Positions 8,236 to 63,351 of a DNA stretch of 64,000 bases are shown here, one piece after another (position 1 is the stretch's first letter; every line of letters starts with the position of its first letter). Below the pieces are notes generated by a model that saw only the letters and a list, made by a program, of their open reading frames with translations, did no database searches and was not told where the DNA came from. The translations under genes and the position numbers were made by a program. Origin of the DNA: a virus (Duplodnaviria; Heunggongvirae; Uroviricota; Caudoviricetes); the IMG/VR virus record IMGVR_UViG_3300027749_005140, positions 1 to 64,000 of that record. One strand, given 5' to 3'.

Positions 8236-9324
8236 TTATCCAATCGTTAAGAAGATCTTACGTGATTGTCTATCAACTGATAAAACTTTTACTTTGATGT
8301 CTTGTCCAGACACAAACTTTTTGCCTAATTTCTCCATTTCTGAAGTGTGGATTAGTCCAACTGTTTCATCATCTAAGATTACTAAAGTTCCAAATTGTTT
8401 CACATCTTTCACACGACCATCAATAACTTGACCGTTTTTGATGTTATCCCAAAGTGTTTCTCTTAGAACTTGAGTAAGAATAATCTTCTCTTTAATGATT
8501 TCTTTTACATAGAATTCAATCTCTTGTCCTGGTTTAATTTCGGAGATTCTGTTTTGCCAATCTTCTGTAACATTCGCTTTGTGAATCATACCAGTTAAAC
8601 ACTCGTTAAACTCAACAAAGATACCAAACGGTGTTGTTCCAGTTACTCTACCACCATATAAGTTATTAAACTCAAGATTACCAATTTCTTCTGGAATCAA
8701 TGATTGTAGATACTTTCTACGACTTACGATATAAGTTCCTTCATGTTCTGAGAAAGACTCAATCATTACTTGGAATGTATCACCAACAATTGAAGTTGGG
8801 TCGTAAAGTTTGTTGATACCTGCTAAGGTATTTGGCATAAATCCTGGAAGAGTTACTCCTCCATTTGTGATTTCAACATCGTAACCTGCTGGATTAAGTC
8901 CTCTTACATAAGCGGTTACTGATTCTCCTTCCTCTAAAGATTTAAGGTTTTCGTGAGCTCTTGACTCATATAGTGAAGCAATGCTTCCTTTGATGAAATA
9001 TTGACCGTGATTTATCTCGGTAATTAAAACATCAACCTCATCTCCAGTGTTGCAATTTTTAAGGTACTTTGCCTCATTTGGTTTGTCTTCAACTCTAACA
9101 TCATCTTTGAATCCGTCAACGCTAAATACAAACTGATTAGCCATAATACCTCGGTAGTTAGATCTAACCACATTACCTATTTGTGGTATTTCTAATTTAA
9201 TAGAGCTATAAAGAGCATCTAAGTCTTTATCACTCATATTCTTACCCTTTCTGTAGCTTTTTTCTTCAAATAAAAGCTCAAAGTCTGGGTTTCCTACTTC
9301 TGGGTTTAAAATTTCGTTTGTCAT
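8236..9324 (-). CDS. multi-S1-domain RNA-binding protein (ribosomal protein bS1-like)
   Basis: Repeated S1 OB-fold signatures, e.g. GQVIDGRVKDVKQFGTLVILDDETVGLIHTSEM and GGRVTGTTPFGIFVEF..GMIH. Confidence 0.6.
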   Translation of the reverse strand: MTNEILNPEVGNPDFELLFEEKSYRKGKNMSDKDLDALYSSIKLEIPQIGNVVRSNYRGIMANQFVFSVDGFKDDVRVEDKPNEAKYLKNCNTGDEVDVLITEINHGQYFIKGSIASLYESRAHENLKSLEEGESVTAYVRGLNPAGYDVEITNGGVTLPGFMPNTLAGINKLYDPTSIVGDTFQVMIESFSEHEGTYIVSRRKYLQSLIPEEIGNLEFNNLYGGRVTGTTPFGIFVEFNECLTGMIHKANVTEDWQNRISEIKPGQEIEFYVKEIIKEKIILTQVLRETLWDNIKNGQVIDGRVKDVKQFGTLVILDDETVGLIHTSEMEKLGKKFVSGQDIKVKVLSVDRQSRKIFLTIG

Positions 9325-9375
9325 ATAATTTTTTTAGTGTTTAAGTTTTAGTGTGAATTATTAAAAAGTTTTAAA

Positions 9376-9741
9376 TTATTTAATTCTTTTTATAGATTTT
9401 TTTAACATATAATCTCTAAGCTTTGCTGCTTCTTCAAACCTTTCATTTTTGATAAGTTCATCCATTTTATCATTTACTTCTTTGGTAACTTCTTCTAAAG
9501 TCTTATTACCTATCTTTATAGGATCTAAAATAGAATTATAAAAATCATCCATTTCCGAAATACTAGTTAGATAAACATCCTGATTTTTAGGATTATTTAA
9601 CTTAGCACTTTTCATTATTTTGTTTAGGAATGGTTTATTTAGAGCAGAATTTTCAATTAAGTACTTTGCTAGATGATAAGGTCTATTCTTAAACATCTTT
9701 AAAAAGTTTGCTAAAATTTCATTTAATTCTTCGTTATTCAT
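9376..9741 (-). CDS. small protein with UVR-like motif
   Basis: C-terminal FEEAAKLRDYMLKK resembles the UvrB/UvrC UVR motif. Confidence 0.3.
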   Translation of the reverse strand: MNNEELNEILANFLKMFKNRPYHLAKYLIENSALNKPFLNKIMKSAKLNNPKNQDVYLTSISEMDDFYNSILDPIKIGNKTLEEVTKEVNDKMDELIKNERFEEAAKLRDYMLKKSIKRIK

Positions 9742-23570: not shown

Positions 23571-24145
23571 TGGAAGAAATAGATTATTTATATGATCTAA
23601 TTAGTAAAACAGAGACAACCTTAATTGGTTATCGATTTTCAGATGAAAGAATTAAAGATGAAATTATTTCTAATCTTGGAGGAACCAAGATAATAGATTT
23701 AAGTTCATCTTTTTCTATGAAGTCAATCCTTAGAGATATGAAAATTGATCAAGTTTTAAATGAAGAAGAAAAACTTGAGTATCTATTATTAGATATAAAT
23801 GATATAAGAAATTCTTATATTAAACAAAGAAATTTTACTAATGAAGATATAAACCGGGCAGGTATAATAAAAAATACTATTTACGATATAAGAGATTGTT
23901 TAAGAGATAGTAGAAATGGTAAAGATATAAATGATATTAAATTGATAATTACTTGTCCACTACAATCTAATGGTTTAAATAAAGATAATAATATGATTGA
24001 TTCTTTTATAGGTGGTTCAACACCTTTATATTTGGCAGATTTAGCAATGGTTATAACTCAACAAAGTAATGATAAAGTAATACAAGTCATTAAGAATAGG
24101 GAATCAGATTTCCACAAAATTATAAAATATGATAGCATTAAATAG
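23570..24145 (+). CDS. hypothetical protein
   Basis: ORF. Confidence 0.3.
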   Translation: MEEIDYLYDLISKTETTLIGYRFSDERIKDEIISNLGGTKIIDLSSSFSMKSILRDMKIDQVLNEEEKLEYLLLDINDIRNSYIKQRNFTNEDINRAGIIKNTIYDIRDCLRDSRNGKDINDIKLIITCPLQSNGLNKDNNMIDSFIGGSTPLYLADLAMVITQQSNDKVIQVIKNRESDFHKIIKYDSIK

Positions 24146-24560
24146 AAGAGCACGTTATGAATATACGTTCATAGAAGAATTTGACTGCGGAATAATATTG
24201 GTCGGTAGTGAGGTAAAATCAGTTAGAATGGGTAATGTTACTTTAATCGATGCGTTTATTTTTATAAAAGATAATGAAGTTTGGATAAAGAATCTAAAAA
24301 TTGCTGCTTATAAATCAGCACATACTTTAGACATACACGAAGAAAATCGAGATAAAAAACTTCTTTTAAATAAAAAAGAGATTGTACGAATCAAAAGAAA
24401 ACTGGAAGATAAAGGTATAACCGCAATTCCACTTGGTATGTTTGTTAAGAATAACAAAATTAAAATTAAAATAGCTGTGGCTAAGGGTAAGAAAACTTGG
24501 GATAAAAGAGCTTCAATAAAGGAAAGAGATCTTACCAGAGAGATGCAACGAAATATATAA
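24129..24560 (+). CDS. smpB: SsrA-binding protein SmpB
   Basis: Full-length match to SmpB: IALNRRARYEY, GSEVKS, KLLLNKKE, AIPL..F, KIKIAVAKGKK.WDKR..IKERD. Confidence 0.85.
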   Translation: MIALNRRARYEYTFIEEFDCGIILVGSEVKSVRMGNVTLIDAFIFIKDNEVWIKNLKIAAYKSAHTLDIHEENRDKKLLLNKKEIVRIKRKLEDKGITAIPLGMFVKNNKIKIKIAVAKGKKTWDKRASIKERDLTREMQRNI

Positions 24561-24563
24561 TAT

Positions 24564-24917
24564 ATGAAATTGACGTTATTAGAATATCTTGATAAATTAC
24601 ACCTATCAAATACTGAAGATGAAGTTATTGATACACTTAAAAGACTTATGAAGAACTTTAGTTCCAATAATTACAAAGGTGTTATTATGTCAAATCCGTA
24701 TTTTAAATCATTAGCACTTGATTTAAAAGAAGAGGTCGGTAAAGAAATGAATTTAATGAAAGATTTAATAACTGTTGAAATCGATAATCTCAATTCACAA
24801 TTAAATAAAACTAAAAATACAGCGGACTTTTTAAAATTAAAGGATCTAAGAAGAGAATGTGTACACCTTTTAACTGAGTTAGAAACTAGACAACATGATT
24901 TATATCTACTATCTTAA
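24564..24917 (+). CDS. hypothetical protein
   Basis: ORF. Confidence 0.3.
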   Translation: MKLTLLEYLDKLHLSNTEDEVIDTLKRLMKNFSSNNYKGVIMSNPYFKSLALDLKEEVGKEMNLMKDLITVEIDNLNSQLNKTKNTADFLKLKDLRRECVHLLTELETRQHDLYLLS

Positions 24918-26582
24918 AAAGTCTTTAACTATTCGTTCAAGATTATCTAATTTTTTAATATCCTTTTTGTAGTCTTCATCACTATATCTTAATCTACTCA
25001 TCTTCAGTTTTAATGACGAAGAATCTGCATCTAAACTTGTAAGAATATCTTTAACAGGTCTTGAAAGGAAAAAAATATCATCTTGTGCTAACTCATATAA
25101 TGATGATAATCTAACTTGCACCGATTTAAGATCTTCAATAGTTTCTATATCTTTAGTTTTAACTGAAATTGATAAGTTTAAACCAATTTTAACCACTTTA
25201 TCAATTATATCAGACATTCTTTCTGCATTTTGATTATGTGTATCTTTAACAATTTTAATACCTTTAGAGTAAGCAGTCGTTTGTTTCAAGCGTCTTTTCT
25301 TAATAGTTTTGAATAATTCATACGTTTTCTCAAAGTTATAAGAATTATCATTTTCTGACATAAGTCTATATAAATAAGAAATAAAGTCTGTTAATCTATC
25401 AATATAAGCACTACTATTATAAAGAGCGATTATAAAGTAATCTCCGATAATTGATGATGAGACAACTGAGTTAAGATTTTTAAATTCTTGTTTATCTTTT
25501 TCAATTCCCAATTTTGTAAATAAAGTAGTTAGATACCTTTCAACATTTTCTTTTCTAATATCTTCTGGTTTTTTTAAAGCTAATGCGTTATTTTTGAATG
25601 ATTTTCTCCTACTTATAATATCAGATGTGGTATCATCAACATTTTTAATTATTATATCATCGAGAAAAAGAACAATTGCAAAATTTGCTTCTTTACTTAC
25701 TTTATTAAAAATTGAAGTTTTTCTCTGATTCCATTCTTCCAAATTAGTTCCATCCAATGGTAAATTGAAATCCCAAACAGATTCTTCTGTCTTATTCATC
25801 TTCTCTAAATCATCATCTTTAAATCTTAATGGTTTTTCATCAAGTATTACTTTATGTAACATAAGATGATCATCTGATTCATTTTCTGGACTTCCTAATG
25901 ACCAAGCATATTGATAAGCAGCGTTACCTTCATAAAGGTTATATCTATCTGGTATTTGTATTTCATTTCTGGTTACAGAAGGATCTGAACCTTCATGATC
26001 ATTTTGATAAAAGTAATACTGAGGATCATCATCATCTCTTCTATTATCCGCGTATATTTCACCAAAAGTTAAATAAGTAGGATCTCCATTGAAATCTTCA
26101 CCACAAACCATTACTACTTTATCACCAGTTACTAAATCTCCTAATCTAGCTGGAGTAATAATACCACCTATTTTATATTCTCTAGCTAGGTAAGCTAAGT
26201 GAGATTGATCTAAACCTTCACCATTACTCATCATAGCACCATTATAAGAATTATACTTATTATAATCCATTGTTTTATTTCCAGTTCCAGTACTACATAA
26301 ATATCCGTTTTCTAATGAAAACCAATACTTAATACAATAAGTTCCAGATGGATTCATTGCTTCTTCACCTCTACCAACAGAAAGTGCTTTATTTACTGGT
26401 AGATATTGTATTTCTTTATCACTTAATGTACTTAAAGGAAAATCAAATTTATCTGAAAGTTTTTTTAATACTTTCAAAAACTCTCTTGTAGGATTATCAC
26501 TCTTTATCTTGTTATTTAAAAATGAAAGTATTGCACTAATCCTATTAGATTCAAAACCTTCGTATAATTTTAAGTACTTCAT
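24909..26582 (-). CDS. hypothetical protein (557 aa)
   Basis: Long minus-strand ORF. Confidence 0.35.
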   Translation of the reverse strand: MKYLKLYEGFESNRISAILSFLNNKIKSDNPTREFLKVLKKLSDKFDFPLSTLSDKEIQYLPVNKALSVGRGEEAMNPSGTYCIKYWFSLENGYLCSTGTGNKTMDYNKYNSYNGAMMSNGEGLDQSHLAYLAREYKIGGIITPARLGDLVTGDKVVMVCGEDFNGDPTYLTFGEIYADNRRDDDDPQYYFYQNDHEGSDPSVTRNEIQIPDRYNLYEGNAAYQYAWSLGSPENESDDHLMLHKVILDEKPLRFKDDDLEKMNKTEESVWDFNLPLDGTNLEEWNQRKTSIFNKVSKEANFAIVLFLDDIIIKNVDDTTSDIISRRKSFKNNALALKKPEDIRKENVERYLTTLFTKLGIEKDKQEFKNLNSVVSSSIIGDYFIIALYNSSAYIDRLTDFISYLYRLMSENDNSYNFEKTYELFKTIKKRRLKQTTAYSKGIKIVKDTHNQNAERMSDIIDKVVKIGLNLSISVKTKDIETIEDLKSVQVRLSSLYELAQDDIFFLSRPVKDILTSLDADSSSLKLKMSRLRYSDEDYKKDIKKLDNLERIVKDFLR

Positions 26583-26625
26583 AAACTATATATTAAAATA
26601 TATTTTTTAAATTAAAACTTTGTTG

Positions 26626-26633
26626 TATATTTG
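26626..26633 (+). promoter_or_regulatory. -7 promoter box TAnnTTTG
   Basis: tatatttg about 200 nt upstream of the YqeY-tyrS operon. Confidence 0.4.
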
Positions 26634-26644
26634 CACAATAAATA

Positions 26645-26662
26645 ATGAGCTACTACAACTGA
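26645..26662 (+). CDS. candidate mini leader peptide MSYYN
   Basis: atg agc tac tac aac tga just downstream of the promoter box; two Tyr codons upstream of tyrS. Confidence 0.2.
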   Translation: MSYYN

Positions 26663-26837
26663 CCTGTTAGAGAATAAGTTTTGGTCACATAGTTATAGTT
26701 AGTGTTTATGGTAGTAATTAGCTGGGAAATACGTTTTCTTATACACTTTTAATAAAAACAGTGAACTACCTCGATATTAAATATAAAATATGAAAATAAA
26801 AGTGTATTTTTTTAGAAATTATTAAAAAATAAATATT

Positions 26838-27242
26838 ATGAATTTAAAAGAACAAATTAGCAAAGACTACATGATAGCTTTCAAAGAAAGAAATATCGTA
26901 GCAAAAAACTTACTTTCTGTAGTGAAAGGAGAGATCCAAACTATTGAGAAGAATACTAGTGTTGATTGTCTTTCTGATGTAGAAGTAGTTAAAATTCTTA
27001 ATAAAACTGCAAAGTCTTTAAATGAGGTTATTTCATTAAATGGTGATGAAGAGTCTAAATTACAATTAAAAATTGTAGAAGCTTTTCTTCCAACACCTTT
27101 AACTAAAGAAGATATTGTTATTAAAGTAAATGAACTAGTTGCATCTGGAATTACAAATGTTGGTGGTATTATGAAAGAGTTTGCTACTTTACATGTAGAT
27201 AGAAAAGTTGTATCAGAAGTTATTAAAGAAGTATTAGCATAA
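26838..27242 (+). CDS. GatB/YqeY-domain protein
   Basis: Colinear with YqeY (MNLKEQI..DYM.AFKERN..LLSVVKGEI.....EAFLP..LT.EDI). Confidence 0.6.
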   Translation: MNLKEQISKDYMIAFKERNIVAKNLLSVVKGEIQTIEKNTSVDCLSDVEVVKILNKTAKSLNEVISLNGDEESKLQLKIVEAFLPTPLTKEDIVIKVNELVASGITNVGGIMKEFATLHVDRKVVSEVIKEVLA

Positions 27243-28498
27243 TGAAAAATATAGTAGAAGAATTACAATGGCGTGGGTTAGTACACGATATAATACCCGG
27301 AACGGAGGCTCAACTTTTAAAAGAAGCCACCACCTCTTATATTGGTTTTGATCCAACGTCAGATTCTCTACACATTGGGAGTTTAGTTCCCATCATTCTT
27401 CTAAAACATATGAAGAATTTTGGACACAATCCTATCGCACTTGTTGGTGGGGCTACTGGTATGATCGGTGACCCCTCTGGTAAGTCAAATGAAAGAAATC
27501 TATTAGACGAACAAGAACTTAATAAAAATGTTGAAGGTATCAAAAATACTTTGACCAGATTTTTAGGTGATACTCCTGTAGTAAATAACTACGATTGGAT
27601 GTCAAAGTTTAGTTTCATAGATTTTGTAAGAGACATCGGTAAAAGAATTACTATAAATTACATGTTATCAAAACAATCTGTAAAGAACCGTATCGAAGGT
27701 GAAGGAATGTCTTTCACTGAGTTTACTTACCAGTTGATTCAAGGATACGATTTCTACCATCTAAATAAAGAGTATAACTGTTTATTACAAATGGGTGGTT
27801 CAGATCAATGGGGTAACATTACAACAGGAACTGAACTAATTCATAAAATGAATCCTGGTAGGGAAGCTTTTGCTATGACATGTCCTTTACTAACTAAATC
27901 GGATGGTTCTAAGTTCGGAAAATCTGAAGGAGGTACAAACATATGGTTAGATAAAGATAAGACCTCTGTGTACAAGTTTTACCAATTTTGGATAAGTACT
28001 GATGATAATGATGCAGAGAGATATATTAAAATCTTTACATTTTTAGATAAAGAAACTATTGATAATTTAATAGAAGAGCATAATAAAGCAAAACACTTAT
28101 TTTTGTTACAAAAAACATTAGCAAGAGAAATAACTATTATGGTTCACGGTCAACAAGAGTTTGAAAAAGCAGTAGAAGCTTCTAACATTTTATTCAATGG
28201 TGGAGATTTAAACTTACTTGATGAAGAATTATTCTTAGATATATTTGGTGGAATACCACAAGCGAAAGTTCCTATGGAAGATATTCTTGCTGGTATTACA
28301 ATGACAGACATTCTATTTAAAACAGGTTTCTTAAAATCAAATAATGAAGCTAGAAGAGCTTTAAAAGAAAACTCTGTTGCAGTAAATAAAATAAAGAGAG
28401 AGGAAGACTACATAGTAACAGATGTTGATTTGATAAATGATAAGTTTATCATACTACAAAGAGGTAAGAAAAGTTACTTCTTAGTTGAAGCATCATAG
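27242..28498 (+). CDS. tyrS: tyrosyl-tRNA synthetase
   Basis: YIGFDPTSDSLHIGSLVPI (HIGH region, here HIGS), VGGATGMIGDPSGKS, KFGKS, C-terminal S4-like domain. Confidence 0.85.
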   Translation: MKNIVEELQWRGLVHDIIPGTEAQLLKEATTSYIGFDPTSDSLHIGSLVPIILLKHMKNFGHNPIALVGGATGMIGDPSGKSNERNLLDEQELNKNVEGIKNTLTRFLGDTPVVNNYDWMSKFSFIDFVRDIGKRITINYMLSKQSVKNRIEGEGMSFTEFTYQLIQGYDFYHLNKEYNCLLQMGGSDQWGNITTGTELIHKMNPGREAFAMTCPLLTKSDGSKFGKSEGGTNIWLDKDKTSVYKFYQFWISTDDNDAERYIKIFTFLDKETIDNLIEEHNKAKHLFLLQKTLAREITIMVHGQQEFEKAVEASNILFNGGDLNLLDEELFLDIFGGIPQAKVPMEDILAGITMTDILFKTGFLKSNNEARRALKENSVAVNKIKREEDYIVTDVDLINDKFIILQRGKKSYFLVEAS

Positions 28499-29644: not shown

Positions 29645-29674
29645 TGTCATAAAAGAGAATAAAACATAAACGTA

Positions 29675-29707
29675 AACCCGAACTTAAAATTAAGTTCGGG
29701 TTTTTTT
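29675..29707 (+). terminator. rho-independent terminator/attenuator 1
   Basis: aaacccgaactt aaaatt aagttcggg + ttttttt. Confidence 0.7.
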
Positions 29708-29716
29708 ATTTTATAA

Positions 29717-29789
29717 TCCCTCTAAACATTGTTGGTGGATGTACCAGACTTTTAATCTGGGAAGGTGGTTTCGATTACCACAGGGGGAA
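29717..29789 (+). tRNA. tRNA-Lys (anticodon TTT)
   Basis: Hand fold: acceptor tccctct/aggggga, anticodon loop cttttaa, T-arm gtggt ttcgatt accac. Confidence 0.55.
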
Positions 29790-29955: not shown

Positions 29956-30044
29956 GGTGTTTGTAACCGGTAAAGGCAGCCGACCAGATTGTGAATCTGG
30001 AATGAATTAATTTTCTAATGCGGGTTCGAATCCCGTCTCACACC
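29956..30044 (+). tRNA. tRNA-His-like (anticodon GTG) with G-1 and expanded variable region
   Basis: Extra 5' G, anticodon loop ttgtgaa, T-arm gcggg ttcgaat cccgt; 19-nt variable region and two acceptor mismatches. Possibly degenerate. Confidence 0.35.
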
Positions 30045-30062
30045 CTAAATTCTCCCTCTAAA

Positions 30063-62551: not shown

Positions 62552-62639
62552 TACTGGGTTGCCATAGCCAGGTCGAATGGTTCGGACTGTTAATCCGATG
62601 AGCATCGCTCCACCGTGGGTTCGAATCCCACCCCAGTAG
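62552..62639 (+). tRNA. tRNA-like, anticodon GTT, with class-II-length variable hairpin (atypical)
   Basis: Perfect acceptor tactggg/cccagta, stem tcgga/tccga, loop ctgttaa, variable hairpin gagc atc gctc, T-arm gtggg ttcgaat cccac. Confidence 0.35.
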
Positions 62640-62647
62640 CAATACAT

Positions 62648-63007: not shown

Positions 63008-63095
63008 GGCATAGTGTCTGAGTGGTCGAAAGATGCGGTCTGCAAAACCGTAATGATTAAGTTCATCATCGTAGGTTCAAATCCTACCTATGCTT
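63008..63095 (+). tRNA. tRNA-Cys (anticodon GCA) with expanded variable hairpin
   Basis: Acceptor ggcatag/ctatgct, stem gcggt/accgt, loop ctgcaaa, variable atga ttaagt tcat, T-arm gtagg ttcaaat cctac. Confidence 0.5.
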
Positions 63096-63102
63096 CAATA
63101 AT

Positions 63103-63265: not shown

Positions 63266-63346
63266 GCTAGTGTGGCCCAGTGGCGACGGCACTTCCCTTG
63301 TAAGGAAGAAATAAAAACACCGCAGGTTCGAGTCCTGTCACTAGCT
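63266..63346 (+). tRNA. tRNA-Thr (anticodon TGT) with 13-nt A-rich variable region
   Basis: Perfect acceptor gctagtg/cactagc, stem cttcc/ggaag, loop cttgtaa, T-arm gcagg ttcgagt cctgt. Confidence 0.55.
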
Positions 63347-63351
63347 CAACA

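Follow-up and report, generated by a model that had tools for sequence, protein, structure and literature searches.

A structured RNA family of huge phages and its shortened form upstream of yqeY and tyrS, a putative leader with a leaky terminator

The RNA considered here lies upstream of the genes yqeY and tyrS in an A+T-rich stretch of phage DNA that carries 29 transfer RNA (tRNA) genes (IMG/VR virus record IMGVR_UViG_3300027749_005140, positions 1 to 64,000; these 64,000 nucleotides (nt) are called the window), the nearest GenBank relatives of which are uncultured "Mahaphage" genomes of 634-642 kb. Here, I show that it belongs to a new, previously undescribed family of structured RNAs of huge (Mahaphage-type, Bacteroidota-infecting) phages. 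With moderate confidence, positions 26640-26813 are read as a shortened member of this family that acts in cis, as a structured leader ending in a leaky terminator. The predicted hosts of the "Mahaphage" genomes are Bacteroidetes (PMC7162821).

A first-pass annotation of the window had described at this place a very short open reading frame (the mini-ORF, MSYYN) with two tyrosine codons, followed by a terminator-like long-range hairpin, and had proposed that the two form a tyrosine-sensing attenuator of tyrS. All the features it named are present, and their arrangement is not a random one; a role of the mini-ORF in sensing tyrosine is poorly supported, since in relatives the same nucleotides form one strand of an older helix of the family. 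Translation genes are numerous in huge phages, and the RNA offers a testable handle on their regulation, or on a new RNA function, in uncultivated viruses.

An RNA family between smpB and yqeY

The window region is homologous to an RNA of about 430 nt located between smpB and yqeY in huge-phage contigs, a large molecule with two pseudoknots and a 170-nt domain, very strong covariation and no counterpart in Rfam. Members were gathered by pattern scans of IMG/VR and of metagenomes, by YqeY-anchored loci and by context look-ups of exact proteins; the collection comprises about 20 full-length and 10 short members, all distinct, and the RNA has been seen so far only in Bacteroidota megaphages. Every member has a TAnnTTTG promoter box in the corresponding position, 76-124 nt upstream of the conserved core AUGGURGUAAKUAGCUG, and after the box the order is P1 (a basal stem with a variable interior), the H-type pseudoknots PK-a and PK-b, and a 3' domain, all of them backed by compensatory changes.

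In PK-a, 94.4% of the alignment cells are paired and 12 of the 19 pairs show compensatory change, a level reached by none of 500 shuffles, while slid controls gave 36-53%. Its stem 1 is made of helix A (GGURGU/ACYACC; 97% paired, compensatory change in 3/6 pairs) and helix B (GCUG/CAGU; 100% paired, 3/4), and six of the nine pairs of its stem 2 have compensatory changes. P1, compared in nine main-type members, is 98.9% paired with compensatory change in 6/10 pairs (0/500 shuffles), and PK-b, in which the hairpin loop GUUGG pairs with a downstream CCAAC, is 92.1% paired (6/12 compensatory). The 3' domain, of about 170 nt, comprises several hairpins and many invariant unpaired bases, and 14 of its 33 pairs are compensatory; it is closed by a covarying helix of 8-12 bp, usually followed by a U-rich tract, a spacer of 20-30 nt and the start of yqeY. 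Full-length members also have, about 28 nt after PK-b, a covarying hairpin GAGCAG-AAUGGUAACA-CUGCUC with UAA in its loop (for example L004, 8825-8850).

The window forms a row of the family alignment in PK-a (nhmmer E = 1.8e-14), and its P1 ends at the fixed distance 5' of the core that is found in all members. The stretch upstream of yqeY in LR745206.1 (L001) aligns with window positions 26700-26810 with compensatory differences; in that complete genome of 634,780 bp the RNA is single-copy, and a blastn search of 50,697 GenBank phage records returned LR745206.1 as the sole match. The pattern GTAANTARCT-N25-45-AGTGAACYACC proved specific, 17 of its 18 matches in IMG/VR being true members. The pattern GGTAACACT-N90-120-CAGNNGTTCC gave no true member among the 120 matches listed for genome contigs and six among the 120 listed for metagenome contigs, the rest being mostly due to chance. 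Loci L378, L005, L007, L010, L014, L015, L017, L019 and L020 were discarded as chance pattern matches. Searches of the window, L001, L002 and 10 further loci against Rfam 15, both at the gathering score and at E <= 10, found only tRNAs and sub-threshold chance matches, and no description of this RNA was found in the literature searched on huge-phage tmRNA (transfer-messenger RNA) and SmpB, on phage T-box and tyrS, on structured RNAs of huge phages or on YqeY.

smpB lies upstream of the RNA in every locus that extends far enough, and directly beside it in L070, L095 and L368; yqeY follows in most members after a spacer of 20-30 nt that has no TAnnTTTG box. Exceptions are L070, in which the RNA is followed by infC (an IF3 homologue), and L021-L024, the only sublineage with a second TAnnTTTG box, ttctacatttgcag, between the U-run of the RNA and yqeY (at about 2960-2990 of each locus). 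By tblastn, tyrS occurs only in the truncated lineage: the tyrS-bearing loci all have PK-a only, and the tyrS-less loci all have PK-a together with the 3' domain, including close relatives with 85-88% identical YqeY. Since tyrS is limited to the short form and full-length kin lack it, the family is tied to smpB upstream and yqeY downstream, not to tyrS.

Some loci depart from the main type. L070 (about 9200-9640) and L368 (minus strand of the locus, about 130-600) have a divergent subtype directly after smpB. Between its PK-b and its 3' domain stands an additional hairpin (..GUGUGAGACUAAACGAAAC..) similar to the 3' half of main-type P1, which suggests a rearrangement of modules. In L283 (minus strand) an insertion of about 25 nt sits in the GUCAAG/CUUGAC helix of the 3' domain, and an ORF of 619 amino acids lies between the RNA and yqeY.

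The shortened leader of yqeY and tyrS

The entire 64-kb window lacks PK-b and the 3' domain, as do all tyrS-bearing relatives. Through the truncation, PK-a stem 2 has come to lie beside the U-run, 24 nt upstream of yqeY. As the window U7 and the spacer after it are similar to the U-run and spacer at the end of full-length members, the deletion preserved the arrangement of a helix beside a U-run; most likely, it placed PK-a stem 2 where the domain-closing helix once was.

P1, PK-a and a U-run of 6-8 are retained in every one of ten distinct short leaders, from phages whose YqeY proteins are 79-100% identical to that of the window. Among these leaders stem 2 has two mutually compensated versions, ACACUUUU/AAAAGUGU and ACCUUUU/AAAAGGU; the stems of the inner hairpin P1a are invariant while its loop varies, and the P1 region as a whole is nearly invariant throughout the lineage. 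Between the window and L025, 172 of 174 positions of the RNA are identical (98.9%), against 85.9% for yqeY, 91.2% for the divergent ORF upstream and 95.5% for tyrS. Judged by these comparisons, the short form is under purifying selection and represents a selected state. It therewith amounts to a natural deletion experiment, in which the 5' pseudoknot module alone has been kept under selection with a helix by a U-run, coinciding with the gain of tyrS. Its mirror image is found in the 642-kb phage LR756502.1 (L002), which has the 3' domain only (2790-2960), upstream of yqeY. Two separable functional units are thus suggested, and the fact that the 5'-only and the 3'-only forms each stand directly before yqeY suggests, more precisely, separable cis modules. 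Within the short-leader lineage, L407 and L408 (1-720 and 3405-4039) have an IS605-type TnpB beside a truncated smpB, a fragmented tyrS and a G-to-U change in helix A.

The RNA would then begin just after the TAnnTTTG box, with transcription predicted to start at about 26637-26641, and would fold P1 followed by PK-a, the 5' strand of P1 happening to read AUG AGC UAC UAC AAC UGA. With PK-b and the 3' domain lost, most simply by deletion, stem 2 now lies against the U-run, and this helix together with U7 may act in the yqeY-tyrS leader as a weak intrinsic terminator or as a site of RNA 3'-end formation. Because yqeY and tyrS have no promoter box of their own in the window, their expression would depend on read-through, the extent of which may be set by the folding stability of the pseudoknot; possible modulators are a protein, a tRNA or a small molecule of the translation apparatus. 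The elements concerned are listed in Table 1.

Table 1. Leader elements and associated genes in the window
Feature	Position	Strand	Remarks
smpB	24129..24560	+	Pfam PF01668, E = 8.6e-51; full-length SmpB; conserved upstream neighbour of the RNA family
-7-type promoter box TATATTTG (Bacteroidota-type, TAnnTTTG)	26626..26633	+	read from sequence
Mini-ORF ATG AGC TAC TAC AAC TGA (MSYYN*)	26645..26662	+	nearly all of it in P1 and P1a (5' strands)
P1 basal stem, 5' strand GCUACUA-C-AACU	26649..26659	+	duplex prediction -11.9 kcal/mol
P1a inner hairpin, UGACC (26660-64)/GGUCA (26683-87), 18-nt loop	26660..26687	+	structure prediction
P1 basal stem, 3' strand GUUAUAGUUAGU	26692..26703	+	distance to the core constant throughout the family
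PK-a stem 1, 5' strands: helix A GGUAGU (26710-15), internal loop, helix B GCUG (26721-24)	26710..26724	+	alignment
PK-a stem 2, 5' strand AUACACUUUUA	26741..26751	+	5' arm of the terminator of the first-pass annotation; located within the loop that helices A and B enclose
PK-a stem 1, 3' strands: helix B CAGU (26759-62), GAA, helix A ACUACC (26765-70)	26759..26770	+	alignment
PK-a stem 2, 3' strand UAAAAGUGUAU	26797..26807	+	3' arm of the terminator of the first-pass annotation
U7 tract	26807..26813	+	homologue of the U-run that ends the full-length RNA; resembles L004 U-run and spacer
A/U-rich 24-nt spacer to the yqeY start codon	26814..26837	+	no promoter box
yqeY (GatB/YqeY-domain protein)	26838..27242	+	Pfam PF09424, E = 1e-10; next gene after the RNA in nearly all family members
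tyrS (tyrosyl-tRNA synthetase)	27242..28498	+	Pfam PF00579, E = 3.3e-78; start overlaps the yqeY stop

That the region is the transcribed leader of yqeY-tyrS, as first annotated, is borne out by the conserved promoter box and by the lack of a second box before yqeY. The long-range hairpin is likewise real, conserved with compensatory changes and always abutting a U-run. The pairing of atacactttt (26741-50) with aaaagtgtat (26798-807) is part of a longer perfect inverted repeat of 11 bp (26741-51/26797-807; 2 G-C pairs, -7.2 kcal/mol), with which the loop, long as described, comes to 45 nt rather than 47. The run of seven T is present at 26807-13, but its first T is inside the stem, leaving six after it. 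Along the same line, the mini-ORF and the -7 box both exist, with a spacing of 12 nt where about 10 had been given. An extended promoter motif, AACTT-N5-8-TAnnTTTG, was considered and dropped as a general motif, since the window has no more than 3 sites where 1.07 would be expected.

A perfect inverted repeat of at least 10 bp with a T-run arises in 0.2% of dinucleotide shuffles of 26640-26837 (the repeat alone in 8%), and stem 2 is the sole long-loop example in the window. Structure prediction, which had been proposed as a check on the hairpin, did not single out the leader: the minimum free energy of 26638-26840 is no better than that of shuffles (z = -0.19), so that thermodynamics alone would have missed the region. 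Such folding is uninformative here, as the minimum is dominated by A/U-rich long-range pairings and pseudoknots cannot be modelled; masking the mini-ORF, as a mimic of a stalled ribosome, changed the predicted fold little, a result subject to the same unreliability.

Several points weigh against reading the leader as a cis-acting element with a leaky terminator. The transcript start, termination at about 26810-14 and read-through are all deduced from sequence. Stem 2 makes a poor terminator by the usual criteria, having G-C pairs at only 2 of its 11 positions and a 45-nt loop, on account of which the consensus terminator scan did not call the helix and its U-run, and this phage uses compact, G+C-containing terminators elsewhere. 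No alternative fold of the leader was found. A free-standing RNA would fit equally well the RNA followed by infC in L070, the yqeY promoter box of L021-24 and the smpB-adjacent RNA of L070 and L368. Lastly, the link between the truncated form, the mini-ORF and tyrS is left as a coincidence or a single evolutionary event.

As to the surroundings, a spacer of 255 nt separates yqeY from a divergent ORF of 557 amino acids (24909-26582, minus strand). This ORF and another of 117 amino acids (24564-24917) sit between smpB and the RNA; neither has a Pfam match, both are conserved across the main lineage, and both are absent from the subtypes in which smpB abuts the RNA. Further downstream, just before the tRNA array that starts at 29717, is a bidirectional terminator (29674-29703), a palindromic hairpin of 13 perfect bp flanked by T-runs on the two strands. 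Four window tRNAs (29957-30045, 62552-62640, 63008-63096 and 63266-63347) of types that normally have a short variable arm (His, Asn, Cys, Thr) are 82-91 nt long, and overlong tRNAs are also found in L002 (4574-4760) and L053 (3316-3602), the Lys type being affected in relatives; their low Rfam tRNA scores go with this, and insertions or introns are suggested.

Alternative explanations

A different view, to which a minor but not trivial probability is given, holds that the family is a free-standing, trans-acting non-coding RNA of a translation and ribosome-rescue cluster (a partner, mimic or regulator of SmpB/tmRNA) and that the window copy is a cut-down derivative co-transcribed with yqeY. 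The constancy of smpB upstream, with direct adjacency in L070/L095 and L368, speaks for it, as do the absence of yqeY after the L070 RNA, the separate yqeY promoter box of L021-24, and the fact that the RNA has its own promoter box and its own end of helix and U-run. Moreover, LR745206.1 has smpB and this RNA, and ARAGORN found 59 tRNAs and no tmRNA in its complete genome (nor any tmRNA in the window or in 12 loci); smpB without a detectable tmRNA keeps a rescue-related role alive. The succession of pseudoknot, about 28 nt and a hairpin with a UAA loop recalls the layout of tmRNA, namely PK1, the tag and helix 5 with its stop codons. Yet a tRNA-like domain is missing, Rfam gives no tmRNA match at E <= 10, and an acceptor-strand partner for the invariant GUUCC was sought and not found. 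The putative tag frame is not conserved: upstream of the loop UAA it stays open over 3 to 37 codons, and indels shift it from one member to another. In most members yqeY is without a promoter box of its own, and the persistence before yqeY of both a 5'-domain-only form (the window lineage) and a 3'-domain-only form (L002) fits cis modules better. A bolder variant, in which the 430-nt RNA works with or replaces tmRNA beside the phage SmpB, as a decoy, a regulator or a non-canonical rescue RNA, and the window lineage has re-used the 5' pseudoknot module as the leader of a newly acquired tyrS, is considered improbable.

The ribosome-mediated attenuator deserves a fuller account, for it is what drew attention to the region. 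In this model, a ribosome stalling at the Tyr codons of MSYYN for want of charged tRNA-Tyr would keep P1 open and block the 26741/26798 helix, with read-through into yqeY-tyrS as the outcome. Leader-peptide control of this kind has precedents in a synthetase operon, pheST of E. coli, and in Trp genes of Bacteroidota. Mini-ORF, truncated leader and tyrS co-occur perfectly, which is striking; only 6 Tyr-Tyr mini-ORFs exist in 2 x 64 kb of the window, which puts the chance of one in this 200-nt leader at about 1%; and the helix with its U-run is conserved. The first-pass annotation had named conservation in related phages as a check, and among the tyrS-bearing relatives the mini-ORF comes through it, each of their ten distinct leaders having MSYY(N/S)*. 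TAC has become TAT in 4/10; apart from AAC to AGC in one leader, no other change is seen.

It is the kin without tyrS that point elsewhere. The ORF, of just 5 codons and at some 6-8 nt from the predicted transcript start, coincides with the 5' strand of an older covarying helix. At the same position L397/L398 read AUG AGU UAC UAA and L021 reads AUG AGU UAU UAA, i.e. MSY*, in the absence of any tyrS; L022-24, L396 and L406 have no AUG there, and in members further removed the P1 sequence is unrelated. Covariation links the third base of the Tyr codon to its partner in P1, the pair being U-A in L023 (GUUAUUAAGGUU/AACUUUAAUAAU) and C-G in L397 (GUUACUAAGGUU/AAUCUUAGUAAU), and in 3/4 of the TAC-to-TAT variants the facing position on the opposite P1 strand has changed as well. 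A coding-type constraint on the ORF, with synonymous changes free of the pairing, was not borne out by these comparisons. Nor was an antiterminator found. The pairing of aaaacagtg (26755-63) with the 5' strand of stem 2, put forward as the alternative hairpin, can form, but at -1.2 kcal/mol against -7.2 for the long-range hairpin, and across the family it is 73% paired, which 64/500 shuffles equal; the other candidate, between the 3' half of P1 and the 5' strand of stem 2, reaches -2.6 to -4.6 kcal/mol (z 0-1) and does not persist where stem 2 has changed. The Tyr codons of the mini-ORF are thus probably a by-product of the P1 sequence. Given MSY* or no AUG in tyrS-less kin, the wobble covariation, the opposite-strand changes and the want of an antiterminator, control by a leader peptide is held to be quite unlikely.

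One may also ask whether the window copy is a functionless remnant of the deletion, with its hairpin, U-run and mini-ORF accidental. Half of the ancestral RNA is indeed missing, the window departs from otherwise invariant bases (GUAAUUAG for GUAAGUAG, and loss of the YGUA after helix A), and its fold energy is no better than that of shuffles. A remnant would hardly be expected, however, to keep P1, PK-a, the U-run and a compensated stem 2 in ten variants whose YqeY proteins differ by up to 21%, or to be 98.9% identical between the window and L025 where the flanking genes are 86-95% identical, and a low likelihood is assigned to it.

Two readings in terms of other cis-acting RNAs fare worse. 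Very little credence is given to a processive antitermination RNA of the put/EAR kind, by which polymerase would read through into yqeY and the downstream tRNA arrays: a structured RNA right after a promoter box does head a unit that runs into yqeY and tRNA arrays, and its own weak terminator-like end follows, but it has no similarity in sequence or structure to put or EAR RNAs and no Rfam match. The least credible is a T-box-like or other tRNA-sensing leader of the synthetase gene. The element is upstream of tyrS in the window, several conserved loops with UGGU/GGUAA could pair with a tRNA 3' end, and 'AGAAUGGUAACAC' in domain 2 bears a loose resemblance to the T-box sequence; against this, the window and 12 relatives give no T-box (RF00230) match at E <= 10, the UGGUAAC motif is in the loop of a covarying hairpin and not in an antiterminator bulge, and is absent from the window, no Tyr specifier is conserved, and full-length members are not beside any tyrS. 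RNase P RNA was set aside after an informal inspection by eye, in which neither a P4-type pairing for ACAG..GUUCC nor a CR-I-like partner could be seen, and no Rfam match was obtained.

Comparison with known systems

T-box riboswitches share with this RNA a long structured leader before an aminoacyl-tRNA synthetase gene and a terminator-like 3' end. They differ in that the present family has no model match, no specifier loop and no antiterminator bulge, and is linked to yqeY and smpB and not to synthetase genes. The likeness to tmRNA (ssrA) concerns the full-length RNA, which is syntenic with smpB, is of about 430 nt, has several pseudoknots, one of them followed after some 28 nt by the hairpin with the UAA loop, and occurs in a relative with smpB and no detectable canonical tmRNA; unlike tmRNA, it has no tRNA-like domain, no acceptor stem with G3-U70, no CCA end and no Rfam tmRNA match, and the window copy is without the whole 3' domain.

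Leader-peptide attenuators of the trp, his and pheST type, and the Bacteroid-trp leader, resemble the window leader in the short 5' ORF with repeated relevant codons, in the overlap of that ORF with the first stem strand (segment 1 of the 1:2 pairing) and in the helix and U-run shortly before the regulated genes (here 11 bp and U7, 24 nt before yqeY). They differ from it in having a 2:3 antiterminator pairing; in the window, the terminator stem belongs to a pseudoknot and has a loop of 45 nt, and the ORF, 5 codons long, is inherited from a non-coding helix of tyrS-less kin with a covarying wobble position.

A further comparison is with the pseudoknot riboswitches with terminator platforms (preQ1-I, SAM-II/V, fluoride), where a compact H-type pseudoknot in the 5' leader, the folding of which could decide whether a helix next to a U-run forms, and a strong conservation of both helices and unpaired bases are common ground. 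The differences are the lack of any sequence or model match to these classes, loops that are much longer here (17, 9 and about 30 nt), and the circumstance that the pseudoknot stem itself would be the terminator stem, with no separate hairpin.

With canonical intrinsic terminators the leader shares an 11-bp helix followed directly by 6-7 U, the U-run being the only one of their features that it has in full, for stem 2 is not a compact G+C-rich hairpin with a loop of 3-8 nt; its G-C pairs number 2, its base is A/U-rich, and half of another helix lies in its 45-nt loop. To sum up, the element is best classed among structured leaders whose end is terminator-like, and there is a small chance of its being something categorically new linked to SmpB. 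If a helix that closes a domain and the U-run beside it do terminate transcription, the design would be an unusual expression platform.

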